A stretch of 57,165 bases of DNA, from positions 1-57,165 of IMG/VR virus record IMGVR_UViG_3300049023_000036; one strand, written 5' to 3'. Each line of letters begins with the position of its first letter. Within the stretch, counting starts at the first letter, position 1. This stretch comes from a virus. Positions 7,489-24,854 of the stretch are shown piece by piece. The translations under genes were made by a program, and so were the position numbers. The notes under the pieces are model-generated. The model ran no database searches and had not been told where the DNA came from. It was given only the letters and a program-made list of their open reading frames with translations.

Positions 7489-7498
7489 AAAAAAGAAT

Positions 7499-7699
7499 TT
7501 ATTTTATGTTTAAAAATGATGCTAATTCAACCGCGCTTTCAACCTCCGTTCCATCTTCTTCAGTTTTGATTCCATCTTTCTTTTCGCCGGGTTTTTTATT
7601 CGTTTTGAACTTCGGAATTGTTGCTGTAAACATCATCAGGTTTATGAACGAGATTTCCCAAAGGATTTGTTCAGTTGTAAACCTGAAATATTTAATCAT
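7499..7699 (-). CDS. Tail assembly chaperone, T-like -1 frame extension
   Basis: 66-aa ORF overlapping the stop of 7696..8184 (ATGA). It is in the -1 frame relative to that ORF and sits directly upstream of the tape measure. Confidence 0.5.
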   Translation of the reverse strand: MIKYFRFTTEQILWEISFINLMMFTATIPKFKTNKKPGEKKDGIKTEEDGTEVESAVELASFLNIK

Positions 7700-8184: not shown

Positions 8185-8198
8185 GTTTTTGATTTTGT

Positions 8199-8231
8199 TT
8201 AAAAAAGAATGGCCCTAAAAGTAGGGCCATT
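8199..8231 (-). terminator. Intrinsic terminator after the major tail protein gene
   Basis: Minus strand AATGGCCC-tactttta-GGGCCATT, followed by C and TTTTTT. Confidence 0.7.
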
Positions 8232-8265
8232 TCCTCTAAAATTACTAACCCATAAAAATCATTCA

Positions 8266-8784: not shown

Positions 8785-8796
8785 TTTATTTAAGAT

Positions 8797-9210
8797 TTAA
8801 AGATTGACTGAATGAACAATCAAACGAATGTTTGATGTTGTTTCTTTTAGTTCATCATCTTCAGAATCGGTATGTGATTGTATATCACAACTAAATTCTT
8901 CATCATGATGATCTTTAATTATTTGAATGATTCTGTTTGTTACGGTTTCCAAAAGTTCGGAATTCGGCAATGTGGATGTTGGTTGATCAGTAACATTCAA
9001 TGAAAGATTCGGGCAATGAAAGTTGATGTTGGCAACGCCTGTTTGTAACTGATCGTTATCAATGGCGATGGAATTCACAACAATATCCTGTTTGTTCGAT
9101 CCGTCCGGGCGTTTGTGTTTATATATACCCCCGTTGATCATTGATTTTAGAGTTGCATCAGCAAACAATAATTTCCAAACCAAAGTAACAATTGTGAATC
9201 CTGTTTTCAT
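8797..9210 (-). CDS. Neck / tail-terminator-like protein (called by position)
   Basis: 137 aa, last neck-module gene before the tail tube gene. 4-nt overlap with the upstream gene. Confidence 0.35.
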   Translation of the reverse strand: MKTGFTIVTLVWKLLFADATLKSMINGGIYKHKRPDGSNKQDIVVNSIAIDNDQLQTGVANINFHCPNLSLNVTDQPTSTLPNSELLETVTNRIIQIIKDHHDEEFSCDIQSHTDSEDDELKETTSNIRLIVHSVNL

Positions 9211-9716
9211 TTCAACTTTTTTATTGATTGCTGCATTCTTTCAACTGCACGTTTGAACGTCTTTTCTGCGATGATAGATGAACCTGTAATAACATCATAT
9301 CCTTTTGCTTCAACCGCCGCCGCGTAATTCATTCCGGCAACTCCGATTAACACATAACCTGAAGGATATTTTCCACCGATTTCCAACGCCAACTTTTTAC
9401 CAACCCGATCACCAACGAATTCCGCAACTGCTTCAGGTTCCGTTCCCGGTTTAATCTTCAGCAACTTTTTAATTGCTTTTGGTTCCTGAAAATTTCCAAA
9501 TATTTGTTTCCCATCTTTTAAAATAATGTATCCGATTGATCCGCGAAGATTTCGCGTTTTGTCTTTATATGTGTTGGTTGATCTCGCATCAATTACAAAC
9601 TGTTCGCCAACTTGCTGCATCTGATCAAGTAACACCTTTTCAACCCGTTCAACTTGCGCGTTGATACCTTTCATGATGTCATTCAATGTGAATTGCGGTT
9701 CAAGTTTTAAAGCCAT
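9207..9716 (-). CDS. HK97 gp10-like neck / tail-completion protein
   Basis: 169 aa. KDKTRNLRGSIGYI resembles the TG-x-L-R-x-SI signature of gp10-family proteins. Lies in the neck module. Confidence 0.5.
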   Translation of the reverse strand: MALKLEPQFTLNDIMKGINAQVERVEKVLLDQMQQVGEQFVIDARSTNTYKDKTRNLRGSIGYIILKDGKQIFGNFQEPKAIKKLLKIKPGTEPEAVAEFVGDRVGKKLALEIGGKYPSGYVLIGVAGMNYAAAVEAKGYDVITGSSIIAEKTFKRAVERMQQSIKKLK

Positions 9717-10042
9717 GCCTTGAAATTTAATTGCCCCGCATAAAATTGTTTTATCGATCCTCTTGCAATAACATTTCCGTTATCATCCGTAACCGATACT
9801 GATGCCCCATGTTTCAAATGTTGCTCCAATACAGGCATGAAAACAATCCCGAAAAATGCGATCTGCGTTCCATCAACACCCGTAATATATTGGGAACTTT
9901 TATTTCCCTGTGGTTCAAATCGCCCTTTTGTTTCAATGTTGGTATCATCCGCCGGATCAATAGGAACCCAATCCCCTTGCGAATTTTGTTCGCCTGATCT
10001 TGGAACCGAAATAATCACATTATGCGGGTATTGTTTTACCAT
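9707..10042 (-). CDS. Head-closure / head-tail joining protein (called by position)
   Basis: 111 aa, with translationally coupled overlaps on both sides, in the neck module. Confidence 0.4.
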   Translation of the reverse strand: MVKQYPHNVIISVPRSGEQNSQGDWVPIDPADDTNIETKGRFEPQGNKSSQYITGVDGTQIAFFGIVFMPVLEQHLKHGASVSVTDDNGNVIARGSIKQFYAGQLNFKAWL

Positions 10043-10356
10043 ATCGAAGGACTTGAAATTGTTGGTTGTGGATTGATGGAATCAAGGATCGATTGAATGA
10101 CATGTTTGTTCGACAAGGCAAGAATCTTTAACCGCAACGCCTCCCGATCAATGTTGATTGAATAACCCCCTTCAGATACATTGGGCGAAGAATAAGCATT
10201 ATACAATGCATGCGCGGCTGCTATTTCAACCGCATCGTTTTTATCCTTGGTATATGTATCATCAGGATTCAAATCATTGTTTAATAAAACCAATGTTACA
10301 TTGTTTTCATCCAACGGAAACCCGGCGATTGCTTTTAAAGATTCTCTGATTGTCAT
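10036..10356 (-). CDS. Head-tail connector/adaptor (called by position)
   Basis: First gene after the capsid gene. I prefer the ATG at 10354-10356 (MTIRESLKAIAG...) because the longer ORF to 10416 would overlap the capsid gene end by 38 nt. Confidence 0.4.
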   Translation of the reverse strand: MTIRESLKAIAGFPLDENNVTLVLLNNDLNPDDTYTKDKNDAVEIAAAHALYNAYSSPNVSEGGYSINIDREALRLKILALSNKHVIQSILDSINPQPTISSPSIW

Positions 10357-10378
10357 ATTAAAAAGATGGAATAAAAAA

Positions 10379-11473
10379 TTAAGAATAAACCGCAGTAAGA
10401 ATCTGCATTGAATCAATTGCGCTCAATGCCGGGAATGCGTTCCACTCTGCTTTTGTCCACTCGCGCAAAGGTTCATTTTCATGCCACTTTGATAACAGCG
10501 CGCTTCCAAATTTCGCATATGTTACATTTTCAACCGGGCGAATTTCTTCCATCGCCAACGCGTTCTTGATCACTCCAAGTTGGCCCGCCGGAACAAACGC
10601 AACATTGTTTTGATTGAATGGGCGTTGAATCAGAATCTTCCCATCCTTTTCAACTCCAAACGCCTTATCAACCAATTCAATGATTGGAAGTTGGCTTTCA
10701 CTCAAATAATTGTTCACATTTGCCAAGGTTGTGATTCCAACCGGGTTGAAAGATGCGCCGGGTTTTGCTGCATAATAAAACGCAGTCAAGGTATCGATCA
10801 CCTGTTTTGTTTTGATCATCTTGCCAAACAAAGTTTTGGTCATTAGCATTTTCGCAATTCCAAAACCATTATCTGATGCGTATTGAACGCGCGCAAGAAT
10901 ATCATCAATGGGCGTTGCTGTTGCGGCGGTATCCCAAGAGATCGCTGCGTTTGCTTTGTTGCCTGAATTCATCAACAAATCAATATCATCCGAAACAATA
11001 CCATCAGGGTTGTTTGTTGTATTGATGCTGATCTTTCCGGTTGAAACGGCTTCCAAGCACATCATGTCAATTCTCTTATAAACCGAATTTCCTGCTTTGC
11101 GCGAATCATTGTAAATGAAATCAAGTATCTGATTAAGTTTTACCTTATCTGATACAGGCATTGCCTTCATGATTTCAAAATCACGCATGTCGGATTCTTT
11201 CAAAGAAAACATTTCCTTGATTGCAGGAATTGAACCTTCAAGTTTTTTCAGGTCCGGGCGGCTCCTTAATGGAGTTTCGGAATCGCGATCAACAACGGAT
11301 GCAACGGCTTCGATGCGCGCCGTTCCGATTGCCTCGCTGAACGTTAATTGCATTTGTGGCGGTGCAATCCCGAAGAATTCCGGGAACCACAACGGATCAA
11401 AACGATCATTGCGGGAATCAACAACAACTTGCAAGTTGTCTGCATATGCACCAAAAATTGATTTAAGTCTCAT
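10379..11473 (-). CDS. Major capsid protein
   Basis: 364 aa, after scaffold-like and decoration-like genes. GGAGG lies 9 nt upstream of the ATG, one of the few SD-like sites in this genome. Size and position fit an HK97-fold capsid protein. Confidence 0.8.
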   Translation of the reverse strand: MRLKSIFGAYADNLQVVVDSRNDRFDPLWFPEFFGIAPPQMQLTFSEAIGTARIEAVASVVDRDSETPLRSRPDLKKLEGSIPAIKEMFSLKESDMRDFEIMKAMPVSDKVKLNQILDFIYNDSRKAGNSVYKRIDMMCLEAVSTGKISINTTNNPDGIVSDDIDLLMNSGNKANAAISWDTAATATPIDDILARVQYASDNGFGIAKMLMTKTLFGKMIKTKQVIDTLTAFYYAAKPGASFNPVGITTLANVNNYLSESQLPIIELVDKAFGVEKDGKILIQRPFNQNNVAFVPAGQLGVIKNALAMEEIRPVENVTYAKFGSALLSKWHENEPLREWTKAEWNAFPALSAIDSMQILTAVYS

Positions 11474-11537
11474 TTGTTATACCCTCCAATTTTGGGTTTA
11501 AAAATTAATGTTTAAAGTAATCAGAAAATATTTCCAA

Positions 11538-12116
11538 TTACCTTGATTCTGAAAATACGATCAACGGCATTGCGCTGCGAACTGTTGCAGGAGCAGCAAT
11601 CCGGCGGGCATAAACAGTTCCGCGAATCACAACAGATAATGTTGCATCCTTGGAATAAACAACATCATCATACAACAAACCTTTTGCGCCTGTTACTGAT
11701 AATGCTGCTGCTGATGCACCTGATGCAGATGATTGAAACAACGCATCGCCCTCGGTAACTGCACCAATGGTTGTGCCTGTTGTAACAACATCATAATCCG
11801 CGTTGCTCGTATCAATCGCGGTAATTGCATAAGCTGCACTTCCAACCGTTTTTCCTAAGTTCATGCCAACGGCCAAGTTGCTATTTTTTTCCACCTGATA
11901 AGGCGATCCGGCGGATGATGCGTAAACGCGCGCGGTTCTTAGAACCTTTGCTTTTCTTGTATCCTCGTTGTATTCAACAGGCGTTCCTGCCGGAATAATA
12001 TCGCCATCGCTGAACCCGGTTGTTTCCAAAGTGAAACCCCCGCGAACGGTTTCAAGAACTTTTTGAAATACTACCTTTCCACTTTTTGCGGATGTAGTTT
12101 TGTAATGTAATCCCAT
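11538..12116 (-). CDS. Head decoration-like / auxiliary capsid protein
   Basis: 192 aa, Gly/Ala/Ser/Thr-rich, between the scaffold-like gene and the capsid gene (the lambda D-E type arrangement). Confidence 0.4.
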   Translation of the reverse strand: MGLHYKTTSAKSGKVVFQKVLETVRGGFTLETTGFSDGDIIPAGTPVEYNEDTRKAKVLRTARVYASSAGSPYQVEKNSNLAVGMNLGKTVGSAAYAITAIDTSNADYDVVTTGTTIGAVTEGDALFQSSASGASAAALSVTGAKGLLYDDVVYSKDATLSVVIRGTVYARRIAAPATVRSAMPLIVFSESR

Positions 12117-12152
12117 TTTAAAAAGTTTGTTTTCTTAAAAAATCTTGTTTGC

Positions 12153-12803
12153 TTACTTCGCGGTTTCAACAGCTTTTGGCGGCTGTGAATCCTTGGCCCA
12201 TCCTTCAATTGCGGATTTTACATTTTTATCTGTAAGGTTTCCGCCCGTTGAATTTTCAGGCTTCAGGTTCAACAATCCCTTTTGTGCTAAATCGCTTTTC
12301 ATTTCATTGAAATCTTTTTCAATATCCGCAATCACCTGATCAAACTGTTCATCACTTTCAATCACGCGATTTTTTGCAAGTTGAATAGGAATTTTCTTTT
12401 CCTTCATTGCTGCCATCAGCTTATCGTTATATGATTGAAAAGTTTTTTCCTTTTCCAATCTTTCAACCTTTTCAAGTAATGTTTTCAACATGCTTGATGT
12501 TTCATCACCGCCCGGATTTGGATTCGCGGGATCGGGATTCGGTTTTGCAGGATCAGGCTTCGCGGGATCAGGTTTTGTTTGCACTTTTTTCAATGCTTCA
12601 GAAACCCGGCGATCACCTTCAGATTGAAGAATTCCCGCAAATTCGGTGATTGGAATCGGCATTGCATCAAGTCCATCAACTGCGGATTGAATCGCTGATT
12701 CTTCAGTAACAGTTTCAGAAAGTTTTTTCGCAACCCTTTCAAGTAAAGCGGTTGGAACCCCTGCGTGTTTTGCCTTGAGTTGTTCCAAAATTTTTTGATA
12801 CAT
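12153..12803 (-). CDS. Scaffolding protein
   Basis: Highly charged, helical-looking protein with a PDPAKPDPAKPNPDPANPNPGG linker, between the MuF-like and capsid genes. ATG at 12801-12803; the ORF-track start at 12881 is a TTG. Confidence 0.5.
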   Translation of the reverse strand: MYQKILEQLKAKHAGVPTALLERVAKKLSETVTEESAIQSAVDGLDAMPIPITEFAGILQSEGDRRVSEALKKVQTKPDPAKPDPAKPNPDPANPNPGGDETSSMLKTLLEKVERLEKEKTFQSYNDKLMAAMKEKKIPIQLAKNRVIESDEQFDQVIADIEKDFNEMKSDLAQKGLLNLKPENSTGGNLTDKNVKSAIEGWAKDSQPPKAVETAK

Positions 12804-14220: not shown

Positions 14221-15681
14221 TTATTCAACTGTCGGATCATCGTTGGTATCCTTATCATTCATAATGTTATCCAACTTTTTTTGTTCACTTAGTTCGGCGG
14301 CCTGTCTTTCATCCTCGATTCTTTGCTTTTCAATTTCAGGATCAGCAATCAACGGATTCTTTTCAATCGCGGTCTCTTTTGATAATATACCCGCATCAAT
14401 TGCATTGGCAAGAACGTCGATTTCCCCGGCAATATCTTTTGGAAGATAATATTCAAACATCGGTTTCATCTTCTGCATCTTCACCGCCTCAAATGCCGGG
14501 TTAACGGTGATCATTGCCGACTTCAGGAAATTCAATCTTCGCTGAACACCTATTCCGAAAATCTGTTCCTTGCGCGCTGCTTTCATGTGCGCGGATGTGA
14601 ACAATAACTTTATTGCAAACCCGGAAAATGTTCCAAGTTTTGACATCTGCGTAAATGATAAATCAGGCGTATCGCTGAAATCCATGATTAATGATCGAAG
14701 ATTTTCCTGTTCCAACTTTACCGATTCCGGCGATTGATCCCATGTCATGTATTCCGCTTTTGCGCCCGCCGCCAATTGAATAACTTTTCCTTCCTCGCCT
14801 TTTTTTGCGAAACCTTTAACATCACCTTCCAATTTAACCATCGGTGAACCGAAATAATCATTGGTATCAGCATGATTAGAATTTGATATTTCAAACCGTT
14901 CAATCATTTCCTGTACTTCATACCATTCAGGATGTTCCTGCGTATAATACACAACAGGTATTTTCTGAACAGGATTCGGCCCGCCTCCATCGTAATCAGT
15001 CCAACCATTATCAGTTTTTACATATTCGCTAATCTGTGTTGCCGTATAAACAGTTAACCGTTCTGTATCCTTTCCCTCGATCATTGATTTAAATAACCGG
15101 GCGAATGCAATCATATCACCATGTTCATTGAACGTTGGTAATAATTCATCGCCTGTTGAATTGGAAATTATTTTAACCCGGAATGATAAATTCACTTTTC
15201 CTTCATTTGCGGTTCCCATCCAATAATCAGAATCGGTTTCCAATTCTTCTGCATACCATATTTCCGCAACTTCAGTTTCAGAAAATAGTTTTTCCGCAAT
15301 CTGCATATCCAAATAAATCATTTTATTGTCCTCGATCACCTTGCGAACAACAGAAACAAGTTGATCCCCTGCATCGCTGATAAATGGCGCATCGATTTTA
15401 ATTGGATTGGCGCATAAAAATGTTGCTGCGGTTTGCGTGATTTTCTTTTGCATCGGGATCGGCAACCGGGTAACCGGAACAGGTTCTGCACCGCCGTTTG
15501 TGTTCACAATTTTATCCCGGCGCGCAATCGGATCGTTGATCTTATGATCCTTGGAATTATATTGTTTCCGGTAATCATCAAACTTAATATCCTTCTTTTC
15601 AGCTTTCAGCGCATCCAACAATTTTGCAGGATCGCCGGAAAGTGCATCAAATTGTTCTTGGTTCATGTGTAAATATTTCAA
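14221..15681 (-). CDS. Portal protein
   Basis: 486 aa, first gene of the head module and upstream of the MuF-like gene. Size, acidic C-terminus and position fit a portal. A second in-frame ATG lies at 15666. Confidence 0.85.
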   Translation of the reverse strand: MKYLHMNQEQFDALSGDPAKLLDALKAEKKDIKFDDYRKQYNSKDHKINDPIARRDKIVNTNGGAEPVPVTRLPIPMQKKITQTAATFLCANPIKIDAPFISDAGDQLVSVVRKVIEDNKMIYLDMQIAEKLFSETEVAEIWYAEELETDSDYWMGTANEGKVNLSFRVKIISNSTGDELLPTFNEHGDMIAFARLFKSMIEGKDTERLTVYTATQISEYVKTDNGWTDYDGGGPNPVQKIPVVYYTQEHPEWYEVQEMIERFEISNSNHADTNDYFGSPMVKLEGDVKGFAKKGEEGKVIQLAAGAKAEYMTWDQSPESVKLEQENLRSLIMDFSDTPDLSFTQMSKLGTFSGFAIKLLFTSAHMKAARKEQIFGIGVQRRLNFLKSAMITVNPAFEAVKMQKMKPMFEYYLPKDIAGEIDVLANAIDAGILSKETAIEKNPLIADPEIEKQRIEDERQAAELSEQKKLDNIMNDKDTNDDPTVE

Positions 15682-15780
15682 TTATAAATTTACGCGCCGT
15701 TTTGTATATGTAAAAAAAGGATTGGTTTTATGGATTGAATTCCTATATTTGAAATCTACAAGGGCGTGATGAACCCAATC

Positions 15781-15795
15781 TTGCATTGAATGCAA
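15781..15795. promoter_or_regulatory. Perfect 7+1+7 palindrome TTGCATTgAATGCAA (candidate operator)
   Basis: Read directly. It lies about 100 nt upstream of the portal start and shares the 9-mer TTGCATTCA with the repeats upstream of the XRE gene. Confidence 0.4.
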
Positions 15796-15813
15796 ACGTT
15801 TTGATTGTTTTAG

Positions 15814-15841
15814 GGAACGCATGAACTGCGTTCCTTTTTTT
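15814..15841 (+). terminator. GC hairpin with its T-tract on the plus (antisense) strand
   Basis: GGAACGCA-tgaac-TGCGTTCC followed by TTTTTTT on the plus strand. On the coding strand the hairpin is preceded by an A-tract and followed by CTAAAAC, so there is no U-tract. Confidence 0.35.
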
Positions 15842-16886
15842 ATTCCGATAATCTTGCGTACAAATCAAATCGATATTTATTCCACGCGAACAGATTATAT
15901 TTTTCATTGGCCCATTCCCGCAATTCATGCGCTTTGTCAATTCCAAGTGAAGGATTTTTAACCAATCGATTCAGGTGATCAAACCAATCAGATTGTTTTT
16001 CAACCCAAAAAACAGGTGCATCAATATCATCTGAATATGGCGGAACTTTGGAAACAACAACCGGGATCATCTTGGCGGCTGCTTCCAACAACTTCAGGTT
16101 TGATTTGTGGGCGTTAAATGTATTGTTCAGCAACGGCACAATTGAACAATCAAAACCGTTATATGCCTCCATGTAGTGCATCAAGTCTTTATTTGGAATC
16201 CGCGTATAATTCGGCGCGATCTGAAAAACCTTTTCCATCTGCTTCCAAATCGGATTGTTCTGCACACCCGCCAATGCGAACCCGATCTTCAGATTCTTGA
16301 TTCTGTTCATTGGGTTTTGCAACAACCTGACATCTTCCAAGTGGGATGTTTGCCCGGTATATATCACCCGATAAATATCAGGATCAATCTTTGAACCCGG
16401 CGAAAATTGATCATATCCATACGGCAAGGCGTTCGGTATAACATGAACATTTTTATTGAACGGCAACAGTTTTTTTCGCAATCTTTCGGTTGTGCATGTT
16501 ACTGCATCCGCAATTTTTACGTTTTCAAGAATCAACTTTGCCTGATGATCGCGGAAATACTTGAAATTAGGGTGCTTAAAAGGTAGTTCAACCCAATCAT
16601 CCAAATCAACAACGATCCTCAATCCTTGGCGTTCCCTTGCTTTTAGGATATGGTTTATGTCAATTGGACAAACCCGGTTCCATACAACAACGCGTGATTT
16701 GTCGATAAATTCAAGTAATCGTTCAATTTCAAAATCTTGGTAAGTATCCGCATGAAGGTATTCATCTGCGTACATGAACGGCAATCGAACCCGGTGAAAA
16801 TCGCAACCGGATGTTCCGGTATAAAAAGGGAATGCTTTAATATTTCCCATCATCAAATTGTTTGTTGAAAATAATATATGGTTCAT
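15840..16886 (-). CDS. Glycosyltransferase, GT-B fold (GT1/GT4-like)
   Basis: 348 aa. The C-terminal half has KSNLKLLEAAAKMIPVVVSKVPPY, resembling the donor-binding helix of GT-B enzymes. Overlaps the GT2 gene end by 14-50 nt depending on the start used. Confidence 0.65.
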   Translation of the reverse strand: MNHILFSTNNLMMGNIKAFPFYTGTSGCDFHRVRLPFMYADEYLHADTYQDFEIERLLEFIDKSRVVVWNRVCPIDINHILKARERQGLRIVVDLDDWVELPFKHPNFKYFRDHQAKLILENVKIADAVTCTTERLRKKLLPFNKNVHVIPNALPYGYDQFSPGSKIDPDIYRVIYTGQTSHLEDVRLLQNPMNRIKNLKIGFALAGVQNNPIWKQMEKVFQIAPNYTRIPNKDLMHYMEAYNGFDCSIVPLLNNTFNAHKSNLKLLEAAAKMIPVVVSKVPPYSDDIDAPVFWVEKQSDWFDHLNRLVKNPSLGIDKAHELREWANEKYNLFAWNKYRFDLYARLSE

Positions 16887-17592
16887 CTTGTTGGAATGGG
16901 ATGTAGTAATTCCCGGTTAATCTGTATTCCTCAACAGCTTCATTGAATTTGATAGTGTTCCGATGCAATGATTCTGTTTTCATTTTCCTGTAATCTGAAT
17001 CAACGTCCATATCCGCGCCAATATGTTCTGAAGATAATCCATGAAGATAAAAATTCACATGTCCGGTTTCACGCGCGCGAAGTGCAAAATCAGAATCATC
17101 CATTCCATAAGGATGATAAATCGGATTGAAGAATCCAATAGTGTTAAACAATGCCCGCCCGAAAAACATTGTTCCAAAAACATTAGGGCCGGGATGAATG
17201 ACCATTCCGTTGTTCAGCTTTTCCGCCGGGTGTAATTTTTCAACGCAATGAATCCCTGCAATCCCTGCGTTCCTTACACATGGATAACTTTCAACCAATG
17301 CTTTCAGCCATCCATCAGGTAATAAAATATCATTGCCGATCAAAACAAAATAATCACCTGTTGCCTGACTTAACAAAAAGTTGTGCATCGGTGCGATTCC
17401 TTTATTTTCAGAATTTAGAACATGAACCGCCGGATTGAGTGATTTAATGTACTCGATCACCCTGCTATCCTGCGAACCATTATCGGCACACAATAATTCA
17501 TAGTCAACACCCGCGTTTTGTAATGCCTGATCAACGCAACGTTTTGTGATTTCGTACCGATCAATTGTCAATAACAGAATTGATACTTTCAT
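16837..17592 (-). CDS. Glycosyltransferase family 2 (GT-A fold)
   Basis: ATG at 17590-17592 gives MKVSILLLTIDRYEI.... Motifs CADNGSQD, NKGIAPMHN and GDYFVLIGNDILLPDGW are typical GT2 hallmarks. No C-terminal TM segments. Confidence 0.8.
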   Translation of the reverse strand: MKVSILLLTIDRYEITKRCVDQALQNAGVDYELLCADNGSQDSRVIEYIKSLNPAVHVLNSENKGIAPMHNFLLSQATGDYFVLIGNDILLPDGWLKALVESYPCVRNAGIAGIHCVEKLHPAEKLNNGMVIHPGPNVFGTMFFGRALFNTIGFFNPIYHPYGMDDSDFALRARETGHVNFYLHGLSSEHIGADMDVDSDYRKMKTESLHRNTIKFNEAVEEYRLTGNYYIPFQQDEPYIIFNKQFDDGKY

Positions 17593-17602
17593 GATTTTTG
17601 AT

Positions 17603-17884
17603 TTATATAAATTGATAAAAAACGAATCCAACGCCCAAATAAAGTAAATACAATACAATTCTGTCAATAAATTGATCGTACAATTCCTGATCTTCCTTTT
17701 TGGGCGATGGGTTTATATATCCAATGATTAACATTATACCCATTGCTTCAATCAGTCTTATTTCAGGCGCATTAAAAGTCGTTATTAAAAACCATTGGTA
17801 TAGTTTGTAAAAAACAAACCCGCCGCTAAACAGATTTAAAAACACCACTAATAGAACTGCACAAAATTTCCCAAAGTTTTCCAT
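17603..17884 (-). CDS. Small integral membrane protein (about 3 TM)
   Basis: 93 aa with hydrophobic spans FCAVLLVVFLNLFSGGFVF, LIEAMGIMLIIGYI and IVLYLLYLGVGFVFYQFI. Lies between the XRE and GT2 genes. Confidence 0.55.
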   Translation of the reverse strand: MENFGKFCAVLLVVFLNLFSGGFVFYKLYQWFLITTFNAPEIRLIEAMGIMLIIGYINPSPKKEDQELYDQFIDRIVLYLLYLGVGFVFYQFI

Positions 17885-17887
17885 GTT

Positions 17888-18169
17888 TTATGATTTTGCT
17901 TTTTTAATTCGTTTCAATATTTTTTTCGGCGATACAGGTTTGAAAAAATATTCCATGTTGATCCCCATCCAATAAGAAAACAGATACAACGAAATCACAT
18001 CAGGAACTTTGCCATTCATTACGCGGGATGTTGTTGATGCGCTCACTCCGATTTCCTTTGATGCTTCGCGCAATGAAAGATTTCGTTCCTTCAAATATTT
18101 TTGCATCGTTTCAGAAAAACAGGCTGAATCAAATTCAACCGTTTGTATTTTGTTCTTTGCTTTCGCCAT
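17888..18169 (-). CDS. XRE/Cro-type helix-turn-helix regulator
   Basis: 93 aa. LSLREASKEIGVSASTTSRVMNGK is a classic XRE-type HTH. A promoter-like element and repeats lie directly upstream. Confidence 0.75.
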   Translation of the reverse strand: MAKAKNKIQTVEFDSACFSETMQKYLKERNLSLREASKEIGVSASTTSRVMNGKVPDVISLYLFSYWMGINMEYFFKPVSPKKILKRIKKAKS

Positions 18170-18179
18170 CGTGTAGATA

Positions 18180-18222
18180 TTTATAAATTATGAATGCAAC
18201 CCTGTAAATAATGAATGCAACC
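18180..18222 (-). promoter_or_regulatory. Sigma70-like promoter TTTACA-17-TATAAA with two 12-bp direct repeats GGTTGCATTCAT
   Basis: -10 at 18180-18185 and -35 at 18203-18208. Repeats at 18190-18201 (in the spacer) and 18211-18222, 21 bp apart. The -10 ends 10 nt before the XRE ATG, so the mRNA would be nearly leaderless. Confidence 0.5.
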
Positions 18223-18306
18223 AATGATATTATTATCAGGTGATCATTGATGTAAACATAAATAATTGGATCGTTTTCGCTGCCTAATGAAAAACTTACC
18301 ATGATT

Positions 18307-18498
18307 TTAAATTTCAACTTTTATTTCGATGTCATACATGACCACTTCTCCAAAAAACCCTTTTAAATTTCTTTTTGATATTTCAATTTCAAGCTGAAGA
18401 GTTGGATCATTGTTTTTTCTGAATTCCTGAATCGCATCAGTTATTTTTTCTTTTAAGATTTTTTTATCTTCCTGAATCTGCTCGATTGTTTTACTCAT
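18307..18498 (-). CDS. Hypothetical protein
   Basis: 63-aa charged ORF, tightly packed on the coding strand. Confidence 0.45.
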   Translation of the reverse strand: MSKTIEQIQEDKKILKEKITDAIQEFRKNNDPTLQLEIEISKRNLKGFFGEVVMYDIEIKVEI

Positions 18499-18508
18499 GG
18501 TTTAATTT

Positions 18509-18727
18509 TTATTTTGGGAATCCCGTTCTGTCTGAATAAAATTTACTATTTGGATTCCTTGATAGTTGTTTGCCTAACTCAAATAACTGAATCGGGTTTT
18601 CATAATAAAGATGATATTTGCCTGAAACTATTTTTACATACAAGTTGATTTTTTCGGCGCAATACATAAACCAAGGATGTTGTTCCAAATCAATATCAAG
18701 TTCAATATAATCTTGGCATTCGTTCAT
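18509..18727 (-). CDS. Hypothetical protein
   Basis: 72-aa ORF with a 4-nt overlap with the LpxA-like gene. Confidence 0.45.
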   Translation of the reverse strand: MNECQDYIELDIDLEQHPWFMYCAEKINLYVKIVSGKYHLYYENPIQLFELGKQLSRNPNSKFYSDRTGFPK

Positions 18728-19350
18728 AAAGAATAACCGCGATTTAAACGTTCTGCTTCATGAAATAACTGATCTTCATAAGCGCGCCGGAATCTTTTAT
18801 TCGCATCACAATCAGTTAATGCAATAAAGTTTGAAGGATACATTTTCGCCGCTTCTTTTTTTATTGCAACAAGATTTGGCTTGATGTACTTCGCCGGGTT
18901 TCCTGCATACATTGAAAACGGGAACAGCTTCATTGATTTGGTGACAACTGCATTCATCCCGATCATGCAACCTTCAGGAACATTTACGTTTTGATGAATC
19001 GTTGCATTCAACCCGATAATCGTTCCCGCGCCGATAAAACAATGGCCACCAACTTTAACGCCGCAACTCAAAACAACATCATCACCAAGAACCGCATCAT
19101 GGCCAACATGCGAATGCGCCAATAAAACACATCCCTGATTGATGAAGGTTGTTCCGGTTGTTCCTGCATCAACTGTTACCAAATTACTGATGCGAACGTT
19201 TTTACCAATCACGACTGATCCATATTCGCGATTCCAAAAATCACGATGTTCAGGCGGGCCACCGATAACGGAAAACGGGCCAATGTATGTATCCGTTTTA
19301 TCCTCGATGATAACATTTTCATGAACGATTGCGGCGGGATGAATTTTCAT
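18724..19350 (-). CDS. LpxA-like hexapeptide-repeat acyltransferase (left-handed beta-helix), C-terminally truncated
   Basis: IHPAAIV, IGPFSVIGGPPEH, VVIGKNVRISNLVTVDAGT and LLAHSHVGHDAVLGDDVVL align with LpxA motifs, including the catalytic His region AH-x-x-HD. At 208 aa it lacks most of the LpxA helical C-domain. Confidence 0.75.
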   Translation of the reverse strand: MKIHPAAIVHENVIIEDKTDTYIGPFSVIGGPPEHRDFWNREYGSVVIGKNVRISNLVTVDAGTTGTTFINQGCVLLAHSHVGHDAVLGDDVVLSCGVKVGGHCFIGAGTIIGLNATIHQNVNVPEGCMIGMNAVVTKSMKLFPFSMYAGNPAKYIKPNLVAIKKEAAKMYPSNFIALTDCDANKRFRRAYEDQLFHEAERLNRGYSL

Positions 19351-19586
19351 TGTTGATATTTTACTATTAGAGAATATAAATCATAATAGGTTGTTGAAGT
19401 TATTTCATTTGCGATGAACAATTTATTCAATAATGATTTTGCACCAAAGAATACTTCATTAACCATTTTTGTTGCAACCGGATTTGTTGGCATTTGTTTA
19501 CGCGTGTTCTTTTGGCTTTCAATTGCCGCGCTGATTGAAAGTTTTATGAAAAGAACTTCCTCGCTATTCAACTCAATCTTTTGCAT
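19347..19586 (-). CDS. Hypothetical protein
   Basis: 79-aa ORF with coupled overlaps on both sides. Confidence 0.45.
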   Translation of the reverse strand: MQKIELNSEEVLFIKLSISAAIESQKNTRKQMPTNPVATKMVNEVFFGAKSLLNKLFIANEITSTTYYDLYSLIVKYQQ

Positions 19587-19836
19587 TTAATTTTTGTTTA
19601 TCGGTTTTGTATCTTTTTACAAGATGAATAACTTCATCAATATCGGTATTCAATAACACAACTTTATGCAAGTGCCTGAAGTAATAAAAAATCTTCTGAT
19701 GATAACCTGAAATCTTTTCCAAATCAGAAACCCGGATTATTAAATTCCTTATTGACCGATTTGCCAGCTTGCAATTATGTTCCTGAACAAAGTAATCATA
19801 AATATCTTTGTATTCAGGATTGATTGATAGTTGCAT
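19573..19836 (-). CDS. Hypothetical protein
   Basis: 87-aa ORF on the coding strand, tightly packed. Confidence 0.45.
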   Translation of the reverse strand: MQLSINPEYKDIYDYFVQEHNCKLANRSIRNLIIRVSDLEKISGYHQKIFYYFRHLHKVVLLNTDIDEVIHLVKRYKTDKQKLNAKD

Positions 19837-20182
19837 AATGTTTTTTTGCTAATTGTCTTAATACTTTATAAACGAATGAATGATTTGTTCCGGTGATCCT
19901 GATCAGTTCCTTTCGCATCATATGCCGATTGTTTAAGATGAATTGAATATCTGATTCCCTTTTCATTCTTTTATGTTTCTGAAATCTGCGAACAATACAA
20001 ATTTTATCACATCTCAAGATTGTTGCAATTGCTTCAGGTGAACAGGTGAACAAATTATCATTGATGAAATCCTTTTCATCTTTGGTGAACTTTCTCATGG
20101 CTTCAGTACGTGAAATAAAATGTTGAACATGCAAACCGACATAATAACAACCAACCCAAAACAAATGGCGATCAATAACCAT
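19814..20182 (-). CDS. Hypothetical protein, possibly DNA-binding
   Basis: 122 aa, with an alternative ATG at 20098. The basic C-terminal part ELIRITGTNHSFVYKVLRQL looks HTH-like. Weak call. Confidence 0.35.
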   Translation of the reverse strand: MVIDRHLFWVGCYYVGLHVQHFISRTEAMRKFTKDEKDFINDNLFTCSPEAIATILRCDKICIVRRFQKHKRMKRESDIQFILNNRHMMRKELIRITGTNHSFVYKVLRQLAKKHYATINQS

Positions 20183-20219
20183 CCTTCAGAATCATTTAAT
20201 ATTTTATCGATTAGTTTTT

Positions 20220-20759
20220 TCATAAAATCATTTTAATATCATCAATTAAATTATAAATGCCCGGCGATGCCATAAGTACCATAAACAATATTGTCAACAG
20301 CGCATCTTTCGATTCTGATTTTTGTGGCTTGTACTTCATGCAAGGGCAAGTTGATACAACACAAATATCTGATTCAAGTTTGGGCGGAATTGTAGTTATT
20401 GTAACCGTCCGATGATCTTCTTTCTTGTGCCCGCATTCACAAACATCAGGTTCATCAGGAACCGGATTCAGAATATCTTCAACCGTTTTTATTTCGGCGC
20501 GAACAGATTCCAATTGTTTTGACAATGATTTTTCCATCATCTTCAGCGCATCAAGATGAACGTTCATCGGGTTAACGTAGGTGTATGAATCAGGCGCGAA
20601 TCCTCGCGCATATTCCCGCGCTTCAGCTTCATGGGTGAATTCCATTCCACCCATGATAATAAATTGCGTTGGATCGGCTGCATTGAATTCAAGGAACGCC
20701 CACATCCCGGTTTGTTTGTTCTGCTTAACTTGCCGAACTCTAAATTGATTATCTGACAT
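20220..20759 (-). CDS. Tail-anchored membrane protein with a Cys/His cluster
   Basis: 179 aa. CECGHKKEDH...CVVSTCPC suggests metal binding. C-terminal TM segment LLTILFMVLMASPGIY. Confidence 0.45.
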   Translation of the reverse strand: MSDNQFRVRQVKQNKQTGMWAFLEFNAADPTQFIIMGGMEFTHEAEAREYARGFAPDSYTYVNPMNVHLDALKMMEKSLSKQLESVRAEIKTVEDILNPVPDEPDVCECGHKKEDHRTVTITTIPPKLESDICVVSTCPCMKYKPQKSESKDALLTILFMVLMASPGIYNLIDDIKMIL

Positions 20760-21138
20760 CTGATTGTTTTTTTAAATTATAATACTTTTTTAATAATCTG
20801 TTATATTGATCGTTCGTTATAATTCCAAATTTGTTAGGTGACTCGCTTTCAAGTAGATTTACTTTAACATCAAGTAACATCATTGCAAGGTTTGCAATAT
20901 CTGCGCAATTTTCCTTAATACGATCAACATCATCATTCATTAATGCCGACTGAAGTTTCCCGACATGATAATATAATTCACTAATCCAGTATTTATTTTC
21001 CTTTACTTCAAGCCAACCGTTTGAACCTGTTCTATCACCTTTTTGATAATTTTCTTCTAATTCCTGATACATGTATTGCATAAATACGGGCAATATCTTT
21101 TGATACATTTCATGATCAGGTGATTGATTGTTTTCCAT
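20749..21138 (-). CDS. MazG-like all-alpha nucleotide pyrophosphohydrolase (tentative)
   Basis: 129 aa. ISELYYHVGKLQSAL...IKENCADIANLAMMLLD resembles the paired acidic helices of phage MazG-type NTP-PPases. Confidence 0.5.
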   Translation of the reverse strand: MENNQSPDHEMYQKILPVFMQYMYQELEENYQKGDRTGSNGWLEVKENKYWISELYYHVGKLQSALMNDDVDRIKENCADIANLAMMLLDVKVNLLESESPNKFGIITNDQYNRLLKKYYNLKKQSDVR

Positions 21139-21148
21139 GATTTATATT

Positions 21149-21499
21149 TTATTGAAACGATACATTCCCGGATGAATCAACATCCATATACGGCCCGGAT
21201 TCTTCATTTCGTAATTTCCTGAATTCAAATCGATCTGCATATTGCGGATAATGTTCAATAAAAAACCGCGCGTAATATGATTGGTACGCATCATTGATTT
21301 TAAAGTTCTGATCTGATGATCGAAGAAATTCATTCCAACGAATCCAATTGATAATCAATTTTGCGCTGATCTTTTTTCGGCCCTTGTATATCGCTCCCAA
21401 TGCCTGTGTTTCAAACTGCCTGTATATGTGCGGATTTTCTTCATGGAACTTATTGAAACCATCCCTGATTGATCGCCCGTTTAATTGTTTGTAATTCAT
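21149..21499 (-). CDS. Conserved-looking hypothetical phage protein
   Basis: 116 aa (FNKFHEENPHIYRQF...LIINWIRWNEF...FKINDAYQSYYARF). No function known to me. Confidence 0.5.
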   Translation of the reverse strand: MNYKQLNGRSIRDGFNKFHEENPHIYRQFETQALGAIYKGRKKISAKLIINWIRWNEFLRSSDQNFKINDAYQSYYARFFIEHYPQYADRFEFRKLRNEESGPYMDVDSSGNVSFQ

Positions 21500-21717
21500 G
21501 ATGATGGATTGAATGCTTTAATAGTTGAAATTGCTTTTACGCATTTGAAATTGTATTTCGATTTCCAATGCGACCATTTTGCGCCGGAATCCTTTTCAAA
21601 TGATCTTATACAATCTTTTCTTTTATTCGCGAATGAATGATGAACAATAAATGTTCCGCCTGTTCTTGGATGGCCTGTATTGATTATAACCCATCCCATT
21701 TGTGATTCGCTTATCAT
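21496..21717 (-). CDS. Hypothetical protein
   Basis: 73-aa ORF with a 4-nt overlap with the downstream gene. Confidence 0.45.
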   Translation of the reverse strand: MISESQMGWVIINTGHPRTGGTFIVHHSFANKRKDCIRSFEKDSGAKWSHWKSKYNFKCVKAISTIKAFNPSS

Positions 21718-21809
21718 TACCGGAACATTTTCATGATGAAATAAATAATGACCGCCGCAATATCAACGGCGATCATTGTTTTCAATGCTCTAATCAGAAT
21801 CACTTTCAT
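21717..21809 (-). CDS. Micro-ORF: 30-aa single-pass membrane peptide
   Basis: Hand-translated MKVILIRALKTMIAVDIAAVIIYFIMKMFR. Its ATG overlaps the TGA of the upstream gene (ATGA) and its TAA overlaps the next ATG (TAATG). Confidence 0.35.
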   Translation of the reverse strand: MKVILIRALKTMIAVDIAAVIIYFIMKMFR

Positions 21810-23137
21810 GATATATAGTTTCGTAGGGTTTCCAATACACCCGCCGCAACTTCTTTATTCACTTTCAAATATTTATCGTAATCATCAACCAACATCTGAA
21901 GAACTTCAGGATCGATTTCAATAAAATCAGATTCGCCAACATATTTGATATGCCGATCAGTTATTTCCCTCCAAGTATTTTTATCATCAGGATCAGGCGC
22001 GATCTGCATCCCGGAAACAGGATCGGTTTCCAAATCTGCAATCTTGCCGCCGAAAATCCTGCTTGCCCACCTTATAACTCCGGGAACCTTTTTTGATGTT
22101 ACAATCATGTTTTTTTGTTCATCAATTTCAAATTCGATTTTATCATTCTGCTGATTGAAGTAAAAATATTTTCCCGGCTTCAATTCGCTGACATTTATGC
22201 CCGCGCTTTCTTCAGGAAACAATTGAACGGGTTCTTCAATATCATGCGCGCCAATTCTTTCACCGGGATTTATTACGGATACATTGTCTGATCCCGCAAC
22301 AATTTCACGTTCTGAATTGACAATTCTATTATTATGAAACTCTGCTTTTGGTTGCATATGCCGTTCAAATGACTTGAATTCTTGATCAGAATATTCCCAA
22401 TACTTCAGATTGATTTTTTGTTCTTCATTTAGGAATCCATCAGAATAATTGAACACATTGTTGGTGTTATTATATACGGCCCTTACAGGTTTCCCCGGTT
22501 CCGGCCATTGACCGAATTCGGCAAATCCGAATGATGGTTTTGCTTCCTTGTAAAACTCAATGAAAACCTTTCGATCATGACCATTCATTTCAATACATTC
22601 AACAATATCCGTTTTGATTAATCCATCCATTATTGAATAAACATCACCTGAATTTGTTTTGTAAACGAATGACCAAGGCCACATATTTTTTCCTTTATCC
22701 CTTGCCGAATAAACTCTATAAGGTTCGCATTTTTCCGGTGAAAACCATTCGCCTTGATTTGATTGTTTTTCTTCAGGATCAATTTCAAGTTTCCAAAATT
22801 CAATAATCCCTTTTATATCATAGTGCCGATGGTTATAATTCAAATCGGCTGTTGCACGATCTCCAATGTATCTAAAAAAACAACGCCCGCCGAATGATGA
22901 ACGTGTTTTTTTGAATGTTTCGATTTCTTCCGCGTCCATGTATTTCCAAGTACATTCATTTAAGGTTTTTGAATCCTTCGATGCGAATATATTTCCGGTG
23001 AACGCGTTGCACAAATCACCCGACATATTCAAATACGAATTAACAACGCCGGAATGCGTTGGCGCATTAACATGTATCAATGTAAAAGGCGTTGGATTAA
23101 AATCCTTGATGAATTTGAATTTTGATTGTTTTTCCAT
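21806..23137 (-). CDS. Hypothetical protein (443 aa orphan)
   Basis: Long uninterrupted ORF on the coding strand. I recognise no motif. Confidence 0.55.
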   Translation of the reverse strand: MEKQSKFKFIKDFNPTPFTLIHVNAPTHSGVVNSYLNMSGDLCNAFTGNIFASKDSKTLNECTWKYMDAEEIETFKKTRSSFGGRCFFRYIGDRATADLNYNHRHYDIKGIIEFWKLEIDPEEKQSNQGEWFSPEKCEPYRVYSARDKGKNMWPWSFVYKTNSGDVYSIMDGLIKTDIVECIEMNGHDRKVFIEFYKEAKPSFGFAEFGQWPEPGKPVRAVYNNTNNVFNYSDGFLNEEQKINLKYWEYSDQEFKSFERHMQPKAEFHNNRIVNSEREIVAGSDNVSVINPGERIGAHDIEEPVQLFPEESAGINVSELKPGKYFYFNQQNDKIEFEIDEQKNMIVTSKKVPGVIRWASRIFGGKIADLETDPVSGMQIAPDPDDKNTWREITDRHIKYVGESDFIEIDPEVLQMLVDDYDKYLKVNKEVAAGVLETLRNYIS

Positions 23138-23139
23138 GA

Positions 23140-23235
23140 TTAAATATTTGAGTATGTATAAATATAAACGATTATGTAAACGATAACCGTTCCGATCAAC
23201 AGCGCATCAATTTTGGTTTGGGGTTTTGTTTTCAT
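23140..23235 (-). CDS. Micro-ORF: 31-aa single-pass membrane peptide
   Basis: Hand-translated MKTKPQTKIDALLIGTVIVYIIVYIYTYSNI. It fills the gap between two genes. Confidence 0.3.
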   Translation of the reverse strand: MKTKPQTKIDALLIGTVIVYIIVYIYTYSNI

Positions 23236-23247
23236 TTATGGGTTTGA

Positions 23248-23652
23248 TTAAAAAGTTCCAATAACATCGTTTCGCATCATTGCGGCATTGTATAGAATGA
23301 TGCAGTAAAATATAAACAACGCGATTGCAGCAATGAACACAATGATTCCTGTTTTGCTTTCAGTTGGATCAATGTTCTTGCACCACCAACGGCGAATGAT
23401 AAACTTCCATGCGGGAACTTCAAATTTGAAAGTACAGTTTTCAACCTCACAACCAACGCCCGCATTAAAAACAGGAAAAGTGTTTTTTGGAAGTACAATA
23501 CCGGATGATGGCAAATGATAAATCCGGGTTTTTATTCCTGTCCTTTTTCTTACAATTAGAATACTATTTTTCATTATTGAAAAATCAGATAATTCAATTG
23601 GTTGATCATTTTTAGGATCGATGAAAAATTTTTGATTCTCGATTGTTTTCAT
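23248..23652 (-). CDS. Tail-anchored membrane protein
   Basis: 134 aa with C-terminal TM segment GIIVFIAAIALFIFYCIILY. Confidence 0.5.
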   Translation of the reverse strand: MKTIENQKFFIDPKNDQPIELSDFSIMKNSILIVRKRTGIKTRIYHLPSSGIVLPKNTFPVFNAGVGCEVENCTFKFEVPAWKFIIRRWWCKNIDPTESKTGIIVFIAAIALFIFYCIILYNAAMMRNDVIGTF

Positions 23653-23915
23653 GACTTTATTTTTTTTAAATGAATGGCGGTTAAATATTCAGGCGTCCAC
23701 TTCACATTGAAATCATATTCATGATGGCATGATCTGCACAACGCCATAAGATTTTCAATTTTATCCTGTTCATGCTTCCGTTTCTTTCCAAACTTGCTTT
23801 GTGCAATTATATGCGCAATATCAACAGCAGGACTTTCGCAAATTTCGCAAGGGATATATTCGCCCGGTGCAAAACCAAAATATTCTAAATAAACTTTTGT
23901 ATGATTCTGCATCAA
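23649..23915 (-). CDS. HNH endonuclease
   Basis: 88 aa. CEIC...DIAHI...NLMALCRSCHHEYD is an HNH / zinc-ribbon core. Confidence 0.75.
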   Translation of the reverse strand: MMQNHTKVYLEYFGFAPGEYIPCEICESPAVDIAHIIAQSKFGKKRKHEQDKIENLMALCRSCHHEYDFNVKWTPEYLTAIHLKKIKS

Positions 23916-24184
23916 CGGTGATTGTTGGTAATTCTTAATTGCTCAACAGCGCGAACAAAGTTTTCCCTTTCCCTTTGAAGTTCATCATGCTGAATTTGCC
24001 TGTTCTTTTCTGATAACTGATCGGAAAATATATTCAATATCTTTCCTGAAGTCAACCCAATACCAAAATGTAAAAATGTCTTATCAAATGATTCAGGAAA
24101 ATCTTCGATTTCGGTGATATATGAAACATGACCATAATAAATATGATATGACCCAATCCACACAAATAAAGTAGTATTTAACAT
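23912..24184 (-). CDS. Hypothetical protein
   Basis: 90-aa ORF with a 4-nt overlap with the HNH gene. Confidence 0.45.
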   Translation of the reverse strand: MLNTTLFVWIGSYHIYYGHVSYITEIEDFPESFDKTFLHFGIGLTSGKILNIFSDQLSEKNRQIQHDELQRERENFVRAVEQLRITNNHR

Positions 24185-24195
24185 GATGTTTGTTT

Positions 24196-24438
24196 TTAGT
24201 CTAATGTGATTTTTTCAAATTCCTTTTCCGACATCTTATCGCCACCGGAAATTAACATCAAACATTTTGCAACCGTTGCAATTGATCCTGTTTGATCGTT
24301 CATTATACAAAACCCGTAATTGGATTGGTAATGTAATGAGACAGGAAACAAAAACATTTCCTTCAGTTCCTTTTCAATCGATTCTGTTTTTCTTTTAAAC
24401 TCTAATTCGATGATCTTTAAATCGTAAATGATATTCAT
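24196..24438 (-). CDS. Hypothetical protein (paralogue-like to 24464..24712)
   Basis: 80 aa. Shares the pattern YQ-x3-G-x2-I ... C ... KE-F/L with its neighbour. Confidence 0.45.
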   Translation of the reverse strand: MNIIYDLKIIELEFKRKTESIEKELKEMFLFPVSLHYQSNYGFCIMNDQTGSIATVAKCLMLISGGDKMSEKEFEKITLD

Positions 24439-24463
24439 GATGATTGTTTTTGATGATGATGTT

Positions 24464-24712
24464 TTATATCTCGTATTTTCTCAAATCCTCTTTTTTAAAT
24501 GACCCGTACTTTTTGATATGATCAATACATTCACTCAAAAGGCAAACCCGCGCATCATCTTCTTCAACTATTGTTAAACCGTCCGATGGTTGATATTGAA
24601 TAAAAAACTTGAACTTGATTTTTGACTTTATTTTTCTTTCAAATGATGATTCTATTTTCAAGTATTCATTATGCGCATCGCTAAATTTTTTAAACTCATT
24701 TGATATATCCAT
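24464..24712 (-). CDS. Hypothetical protein (paralogue-like to 24196..24438)
   Basis: 82 aa, first gene downstream of terL. Confidence 0.45.
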   Translation of the reverse strand: MDISNEFKKFSDAHNEYLKIESSFERKIKSKIKFKFFIQYQPSDGLTIVEEDDARVCLLSECIDHIKKYGSFKKEDLRKYEI

Positions 24713-24854
24713 GATGATGATGTTTTAAAAAGGCCCGCATCCTAAAAAGGAACGGGCGGTTAATTTCTGCTTATGAAACAAAGTTAATTAACACGCTTGC
24801 TGTTGCATGTCGGCAACAATTTAGACAAATTTTTTAATTCGTGAAACTTTTCTT

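Follow-up and report, generated by a model that had tools for sequence, protein, structure and literature searches.

The 57,165-nt IMG/VR virus record IMGVR_UViG_3300049023_000036 carries, directly upstream of its portal gene, a row of genes that includes two putative glycosyltransferases (GTs), and this locus raises the question of which genes belong together and what their products would decorate with sugar. The whole record is referred to here as the window, and all positions are numbered along it. A preliminary description, made from the letters alone, had proposed a new four-gene system in which an XRE regulator and a small membrane protein were combined with GT2 and GT-B enzymes. Comparison with related phages corrects this functional unit to an LpxA-like acyltransferase, the GT2 and the GT-B, with the XRE and membrane genes lying between them.

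The contig ends (1-127 and 57039-57165) form a 127-bp direct overlap, and the assembly is therefore complete and circular, corresponding to a siphovirus-like phage genome of ~57.0 kb in which all genes of the region lie on the minus strand. Comparison of the region by blastn with 50,697 phage records gave zero relatives at the DNA level. The GT-B has its closest homologues in genomes of Chitinophagaceae (Flavihumibacter, Chitinophaga, Agriterribacter) and on contigs of ~56 kb, and the nearest relatives of the genome are Chitinophagaceae prophages; judging from these relatives, the phage probably infects a member of the Chitinophagaceae (Bacteroidota).

Three putative sugar enzymes

The GT-B gene (15840-16853; 337 aa, or 348 aa from an alternative ATG at 16886) matched phrog_7162 in a PHROG profile search (5.6e-65), while its score against PF13692 (Glyco_trans_1_4), 24.5 bits, lies under the cut-off of 27; 343 homologues were detectable. 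An AlphaFold2 (AF2) model based on 41 homologues (pLDDT 95.5, pTM 0.93) predicts a GT4-like GT-B fold with two Rossmann domains, in which the nucleotide sugar would be bound by the C-terminal domain. Its Foldseek neighbours were GlgM, PglA, BshA, MshA, TarM and SdgB (TM-score ~0.6-0.7), the first four with a Foldseek probability of 1.00, and its matches in the viral structure library BFVD, from uncultured phages and giant viruses, bear the generic label 'glycosyl transferases group 1'. An LpxB-like lipid A disaccharide synthase was also considered for this gene and rejected, the fold neighbours being of the GT4 type.

The GT2 gene (16837-17592; 251 aa) matched PF00535 with 4.2e-12 and 46.8 bits, against a cut-off of 23.3. 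Its AF2 model (pLDDT 91.2) predicts a GT-A fold, with the WrtF fucosyltransferase, polypeptide GalNAc-transferases and the prophage enzyme TarP as nearest folds in the PDB, and residues D37 and D88 are invariant across 32 homologues. No transmembrane segment reached threshold in a hydropathy scan (maximum KD19 1.23), and both GTs are predicted to be soluble enzymes. The preliminary description had called a GT2 devoid of C-terminal transmembrane segments, followed by an overlapping soluble GT-B, and had suggested profile searches and Foldseek comparisons of AlphaFold models as a check; both calls stand, with agreement from the hydropathy scan and a 17-nt overlap between the two genes.

The gene at 18724-19350 had been left outside the proposed system. 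It matched Pfam Hexapep (2.3e-14), with an LpxA-like left-handed beta-helix (LbH), as well as the NCBIfam LpxA models (1.7e-31, under their cut-offs) and NeuD/PglB/VioB (1.3e-20), and its best PDB match was 8e62_A, a 'UDP-N-acetylglucosamine acyltransferase' (1.3e-38). Its product is therefore best described as a putative LpxA-like sugar acyl/acetyltransferase, and it is the third conserved enzyme of the module. PADLOC returned zero defence-system matches for any gene of the cassette.

A variable cassette beside terminase and portal genes

Relatives were compared through their gene contexts and by local tblastn, and their loci carry the labels L001-L118. The trio of LbH acyltransferase, GT2 and GT-B genes was also found in six phages or prophages, each time beside the gene for the terminase large subunit (TerL) or that for the portal. 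In L117, the closest relative that bears a cassette, the order is TerL, a 93-aa gene product, LbH, GT2, GT-B and portal, with identities of 63% (LbH), 62% (GT2) and 58% (GT-B). The order TerL-LbH-GT2-GT-B-portal was found in L013 and L016, GT-B-LbH-GT2-TerS/TerL in L017 and L019, and LbH-GT2-TerL-GT-B-portal in L055, while L118 and L040 carry GT2 and GT-B. Across the six trio loci the acyltransferase homologues beside GT2/GT-B are 41-63% identical to the one described here; GT2 homologues in the cassette of GT-B reach 61-62% in L117 and L118 and 27-36% in L013, L016, L017, L019, L040 and L055. The two GT genes are adjacent in most loci, with TerL intervening in L055.

The XRE gene is not beside GT-B in any related locus searched, and the membrane gene was not found in any related cassette locus searched; this includes L117, where LbH directly precedes GT2. 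We thus take LbH, GT2 and GT-B as the unit, and the four-gene system is mis-bounded, since its first two genes are absent from the related loci searched and the acyltransferase had been excluded. The synteny comparison suggested alongside it gave a split answer, in that GT2 and GT-B are kept together in relatives but the XRE and membrane genes are not. Nor is the system new: it is one allele of a widespread, variable and accessory phage sugar cassette anchored by a GT-B of phrog_7162.

The identity of the GT-B to its relatives' copies (43-59%) is comparable to that of the portal (34-55%) and MuF (33-54%) proteins. With few exceptions the gene is separated from TerL, portal or MuF by no more than a few kb (L003-L007 and ~17 of 22 genome loci), and it is syntenic with one of these genes in L003-L007, L011-L024, L040, L055, L117 and L118, always placed either among these three genes or immediately upstream of TerS/TerL. 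The accompanying genes range from a TylF methyltransferase with unknown proteins (L003/L012, L006, L022) or a CmcI methyltransferase with unknown proteins (L005, L014, L015) to GT2 with a GT_PLOD-type GT (L009, L020, L021). For the unknown partners u203, u223, u328, u241 and u171, Pfam and PHROG gave sub-threshold GT hints only and no dioxygenase. From these gene contents, GT-B is the conserved anchor of hypervariable cassettes whose other enzymes are swapped.

The largest enzyme sets illustrate this variation. In L004 (6061-9792) and L007 (4846-9742), GT-B is accompanied by a GT2, an epimerase, a transketolase split into N- and C-terminal subunits, an FkbM methyltransferase and a GT_PLOD-type GT, a set that points to a sugar with branches or methyl groups; the GTs that glycosylate collagen hydroxylysine belong to the GT_PLOD family. 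Streptomyces phage Zuko carries a UDP-glucose dehydrogenase and a GT-B homologue immediately before TerS/TerL/portal. The 40-kb podovirus L035 (MW202801.1), from Manatee Spring, has a GT2/GT-B cassette within its structural module, after the capsid gene; the gap between capsid and tail genes (7641-12304 of the locus) holds six genes annotated as Fe-S oxidoreductase, GT2 (30% identity), PhyH dioxygenase, methyltransferase, NodB-like and GT-B. Nothing on cassettes of this kind in Bacteroidota phages was found in the literature searched.

A portal-profile scan of IMG/VR yielded 80 related loci, where a single-sequence portal scan had given none. Among the loci whose flanks reach far enough, the majority lack a GT and have TerL and portal as direct neighbours; GT-B was found only in L040, L045 and L055. 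Other relatives carry unrelated insertions at the same junctions, such as the XRE/ASCH/PAPS-reductase-like block of L089. Together, the GT-less relatives and the unrelated insertions indicate that the TerL/portal/MuF junctions are cargo hot spots at which the sugar cassette is optional. We note that the block of the GT-less L089 (2600-7400) lies on the opposite strand inside the head module, and that its 151-aa and 317-aa ORFs, which are ASCH-like and PAPS-reductase-like by eye, accompany a homologue of the XRE protein described here (45% identity over a short segment).

The packing of the cassette genes in prophages bears on their timing. TerL and TylF overlap by 4 nt in the prophage L003, and in the prophage L005 u223 and GT-B overlap by 4 nt and a gap of 9 nt separates the cassette from the portal gene, leaving no room for an independent promoter. 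Judged from gene order, this packing favours co-expression with the late genes and disfavours lysogenic conversion. We infer that the trio is very probably an accessory glycan cassette of the late operon.

Candidate acceptors of the glycan

We tentatively favour virion proteins as the acceptor, glycosylated late in infection. The trio would then be a three-enzyme glycan module, carried as optional cargo between the terminase and portal genes, whose enzymes would be made late, alongside packaging and head proteins, would draw on host nucleotide sugars in the cytoplasm, and would place a short glycan, probably acetylated or acylated, on virion proteins. The insertion of the XRE and membrane genes, preceded by a repeat-bearing region, may now give local regulation. 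Among the functions entertained in the preliminary description, virion glycosylation is the best supported by comparative evidence, which includes a parallel with mycobacteriophage Corndog.

Virion-glycosylation cassettes are described for Corndog (cluster O) and Che8 (cluster F) in the reports PMC11600133 and PMC11256854, which cite Freeman et al. 2023, and in the account of PMC11600133, citing the same work, the Corndog enzymes modify capsid and tail-tube proteins. The Corndog genes run TerL gp32, portal gp34, TylF methyltransferase gp35, gp36, GT2-like gp37, GT25 gp38 and protease gp39, so that the cassette lies between portal and protease, in the same kind of place as here and in L004 and L007. 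As in Corndog, tandem soluble GTs and sugar-tailoring enzymes are encoded by the phage in or next to the head-gene cluster and, as in the mycobacteriophage cassettes generally, they are accessory among related phages. L003 and L006 each encode a TylF methyltransferase homologous to Corndog gp35 (29-31% identity, 1e-11 to 1e-13). In addition, the fold neighbours of the GT2 include polypeptide GalNAc-transferases, which O-glycosylate proteins, and GT2 homologues carry Glyco_transf_7C matches. The differences are that the host is Bacteroidota-like here and actinobacterial for Corndog and Che8, that an LpxA-like acyltransferase takes the place of the O-methyltransferase of Corndog, and that glycosylation is reported for the mycobacteriophage virions whereas the present group is known here from its genes.

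Several observations weigh against virion proteins as the acceptor. The GT2 and GT-B share no BLAST-level homology with the Corndog GTs, and tblastn found no match in a Mycobacterium phage. The C-termini of the major capsid proteins do not differ between GT-bearing and GT-less relatives, and gave no acceptor signature. As the junctions are general cargo hot spots, position alone says little about a role in the virion; moreover, GT-B homologues at ~35% identity sit among replication and nucleotide-metabolism genes, and some enzymes among the GT4 and GT-A fold neighbours use lipid-linked, teichoic-acid or small-molecule acceptors. Late timing is itself suggested only by gene order, and the regulator and the intergenic regions on either side of the cassette in this genome would make independent expression possible.

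In the portions of the literature consulted, virion glycosylation has been demonstrated for actinobacteriophages alone, and in these it protects the particles against antibodies. If virion proteins are indeed the acceptor in the present group, sugar coats would be common and fast-diversifying in environmental phages, with a bearing on adsorption, stability, grazing, immune recognition and phage engineering, and a phrog_7162 GT-B beside TerL/portal would be a simple genomic marker for such phages. A broader and doubtful proposal is that the phrog_7162 GT4-type anchor marks a widespread hypervariable virion-glycan island in the packaging/head modules of phages of Bacteroidota, Actinobacteria and Proteobacteria, captured here under an XRE-controlled local switch; capsid 'glyco-serotypes' would then be a general phage trait, beyond mycobacteriophages. 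The question is open to direct test in cultivable lysogens, namely Chitinophaga varians KACC 19415, whose prophage (L013) has the trio, and Flavihumibacter petaseus NBRC 106054, which harbours the TylF-bearing cassette L003/L012.

Alternatively, the enzymes could modify the surface of an infected cell or lysogen, through its lipopolysaccharide (LPS), its capsule or some other glycan, and so block superinfection or the adsorption of progeny to debris, with a flippase-like role for the membrane protein and control by the XRE protein. We consider this unlikely, even though the GT4/GT-A neighbours include PglA, TarM and the prophage-encoded wall-teichoic-acid GT TarP, the acyltransferase is LpxA-like, the relatives are prophages, and the cassette of this genome has its own upstream intergenic region, regulator and membrane protein, because the last two are absent from every other cassette searched and no flippase, polymerase or polytopic GT is present. 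Cassette genes translationally packed between TerL and portal in prophages would moreover be silent in lysogens and made only shortly before lysis. The row formed on a phage genome by a GT2 and another transferase behind a small membrane protein recalls gtrABC, the serotype-conversion cassettes of temperate phages of enterobacteria, but the parts differ, as the preliminary description had already recognised. GtrA (PF04138) has ~120 aa and four transmembrane segments, whereas the 93-aa protein has no GtrA Pfam match, two clear transmembrane segments and a weak one, and does not accompany the GTs in the related loci searched; the bactoprenol glucosyltransferase GtrB, also a GT2, has C-terminal transmembrane anchors that are missing from the GT2 described here; and the polytopic, serotype-specific GtrC is replaced by a soluble GT-B. 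Unlike gtrABC, which lies beside integrase/att, the cassette is found between TerL and portal, and no integrase was found among the scanned ORFs of the complete genome, as had been stated. A product other than a surface glycan is less probable still: the trio could make an acylated metabolite of the disaccharide type, or drain the host nucleotide-sugar pool, late in infection. The top structural matches of the GT-B are indeed the small-molecule glycoside synthases GlgM, BshA and MshA, characterised relatives of the LpxA-like enzyme act on UDP-GlcNAc, and curators have named coliphage GT-B homologues 'putative disaccharide synthase', but a TM-score of ~0.7 at 13-15% identity denotes a shared fold only, and variable accessory enzymes around a fixed anchor GT resemble surface-glycan diversification more than a defined metabolite pathway. 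We found no precedent for such a phage product, and regard it as improbable.

Glycosylation of phage DNA appears very improbable. The enzymes would in this case add sugar to a modified base shortly before packaging and so evade restriction, as in T-even phages or in clusters of methyltransferase, 5mYOX and GT genes (MT/5mYOX/GT). The cassette does adjoin packaging genes, a ParB-N-like protein adjoins TerS at 26990-27559, and DNA-modifying GT clusters have been reported beside terminase, ParB, epimerase and secondary GT genes (Pyle et al., bioRxiv 10.1101/2023.12.21.572611). Distant GT-B homologues also lie near a C5-methyltransferase and a ParB-methyltransferase (L008), MazZ-like and RNR genes (L009), ThyX and RecA (L010), or a primase and DNA polymerase (L001), and it is these neighbourhoods, together with the GT clusters near terminase/ParB, that keep DNA as a minor alternative. 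However, the known DNA glycosylation routes all require a base-hydroxylating or base-methylating partner (Pyle et al.; PMC13326640), and when the full set of non-structural ORFs in this complete genome was searched against Pfam and PHROG, no ThyA-like/dCMP hydroxymethylase or 5hm/5ho-pyrimidine synthase, no TET/JBP dioxygenase and no C5-methyltransferase was detected. The circular genome thus holds no detectable enzyme to create an acceptor hydroxyl on a DNA base, and the earlier argument from a missing base-hydroxymethylase holds genome-wide; should DNA nevertheless be the acceptor, the glycosylation chemistry would need none of the known base-hydroxylating enzymes. Phage DNA polymerase and nucleotide-metabolism genes are likewise absent from the genome.

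Comparison with the DNA-glycosylation clusters themselves (T-even phages; Pyle et al.; 5hoC arabinosylation, PMC13326640) points the same way. The likeness is that these also employ GT-A/GT-B enzymes that are relatives of LPS and teichoic-acid enzymes, in some cases with terminase, ParB or epimerase genes close by; the differences are that no ThyS homologue, 5mYOX or C5-methyltransferase was found here, and that the GT-B is GT4-like and not T4-GT-like, the T4 alpha- and beta-GT not being among its top 50 structural matches (PDB, BFVD). Sugar O-methyltransferases, transketolase and acyltransferases are not listed as accessories of DNA-glycan clusters in Pyle et al., according to whom ~65% of phage GT contigs carry no base-modification partner. 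GT-B homologues occur in more than 100 coliphage records, among them phi92/phAPEC8-like phages (Stephanstirmvirinae) with two GT-B-family paralogues each (31-35% identity over >90% of the length). Unlike the present cassette, their GT cluster belongs to 145-kb myoviruses and neighbours the primase/helicase and DNA polymerase genes, and phi92-like phages are exceptionally susceptible to restriction-modification systems (PMC8594841). In Escherichia phage JohannJBalmer (L001; 4707-7883 of the locus), two GTs and two tandem GT-B-family paralogues lie beside primase/helicase and DNA polymerase genes.

The inserted gene pair, candidate regulatory DNA and neighbouring genes

The XRE and membrane genes form a two-gene insertion specific to this genome, placed inside the module between acyltransferase and GT2. 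The XRE protein (17888-18169; 93 aa) was correctly called as a helix-turn-helix protein, with an HTH_3 match (1.3e-05; 25.5 bits) above the Pfam cut-off of 23 and a PHROG assignment to transcriptional regulators. The membrane protein (17603-17884; 93 aa) matched phrog_2169 'membrane protein' (2.9e-10) and no Pfam family at E <= 0.01. It had been described with three transmembrane segments; two are clear in the hydropathy scan (residues 3-29 and 72-93), and the third is only a weak hydrophobic stretch. The protein is a near-orphan, with one homologue among 5.8 billion proteins and zero in 50,697 phage records. We note that in L017, a prophage of Chitinophaga cymbidii, the trio is split by a 174-aa sigma-70 region-4/HTH protein and a 91-aa protein with two transmembrane segments (11014-11810), a pair similar in kind to, and non-homologous with, the one found here, which may be a coincidence or a recurring theme.

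Upstream of the XRE gene lies a 137-bp intergenic region (18170-18306), which may have a regulatory role or be the operator of the XRE protein. It contains two exact copies of the direct repeat GGTTGCATTCAT, as had been noted at a length of 12 bp; the repeat in fact extends to 18 nt with 17/18 identity (GGTTGCATTCATwATTTA; 18184-18201 and 18205-18222), the copies being 21 bp apart. The letters of a sigma-70-like promoter, TTTACA-17-TATAAA, are present at 18208-18180, but the promoter call is indistinguishable from chance, as the region holds 49 such sites against 52.2 expected, and each 'hexamer' is just the 3' tail of one repeat copy. In Bacteroidota, the likely host phylum, the promoter consensus differs from the sigma-70 type. 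The site was accordingly rejected as evidence for an autonomous operon.

After the GT-B gene, the previously noted GC-rich hairpin was located at 15812-15836 (8-10 bp; RNA fold of -20.3 kcal/mol, z = -3.65). Its T-run is found on the plus strand only, opposite to the coding strand, so that it is not a canonical terminator for a minus-strand operon and was rejected in that role. The perfect palindrome TTGCATTCAATGCAA at 15781-15795, which occurs once in the genome, does share a 9-mer with the upstream repeats, as claimed, while the enrichment of this 9-mer is only mild (9 matches versus 3.35 expected; 1 of 100 shuffles reached 9). Both 9-mer and palindrome are absent from relatives that lack the XRE gene, which is consistent with an operator role without proving one.

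Spacing within the block is tight, with a 3-nt gap between the XRE and membrane genes, a 10-nt gap between the membrane gene and GT2 and an overlap between GT2 and GT-B that grows to 50 nt with the longer GT-B start, which makes co-transcription of the four genes plausible. In transcription order, the region as a whole runs TerS (26425-26886), TerL (24855-26438), ~5.5 kb of small ORFs, the hexapeptide transferase, two small ORFs, the 137-bp gap, XRE, membrane protein, GT2, GT-B, a 173-bp gap (15667-15839), portal (14221-15666), MuF-like, scaffold and capsid. The position directly upstream of the portal gene, where the head-assembly genes start, was as described, the portal being confirmed by SPP1_portal (2.9e-41) and phrog_64 (1.2e-60). 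The mechanically called portal ORF begins with TTG at 15681; translation more likely starts from the ATG at 15666 (MNQEQF...), which gives the 173-bp gap. In L117, the gene at the MuF position (5511-7655) encodes 714 aa and probably bears an intein, given its Intein_splicing/HINT and DUF559 endonuclease matches.

TerL (phrog_2, 1.5e-27), the upstream edge of the cargo region, is 58% identical to the TerL of the F. petaseus prophage. The two small ORFs between the acyltransferase and XRE genes (18307-18727; 72 and 63 aa) had no Pfam or PHROG match and were not found in relatives. Between TerL and the acyltransferase gene (19350-24850) lie ~17 co-directional ORFs, among them a 443-aa orphan (21806-23137); those tested had no Pfam match, and for the largest, PHROG, NCBIfam and PADLOC gave no match either. 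We regard this stretch as extra cargo, since TerL abuts portal in most relatives. Immediately upstream of TerS, the ParB-N-like or methyltransferase-N-terminal-like protein (189 aa) matched phrog_498/620 and PADLOC MTase_II (1.3e-11), with a Pfam ParB_N match of merely 0.0075, and its homologues hold the same position in L014, L059, L065 and L104.

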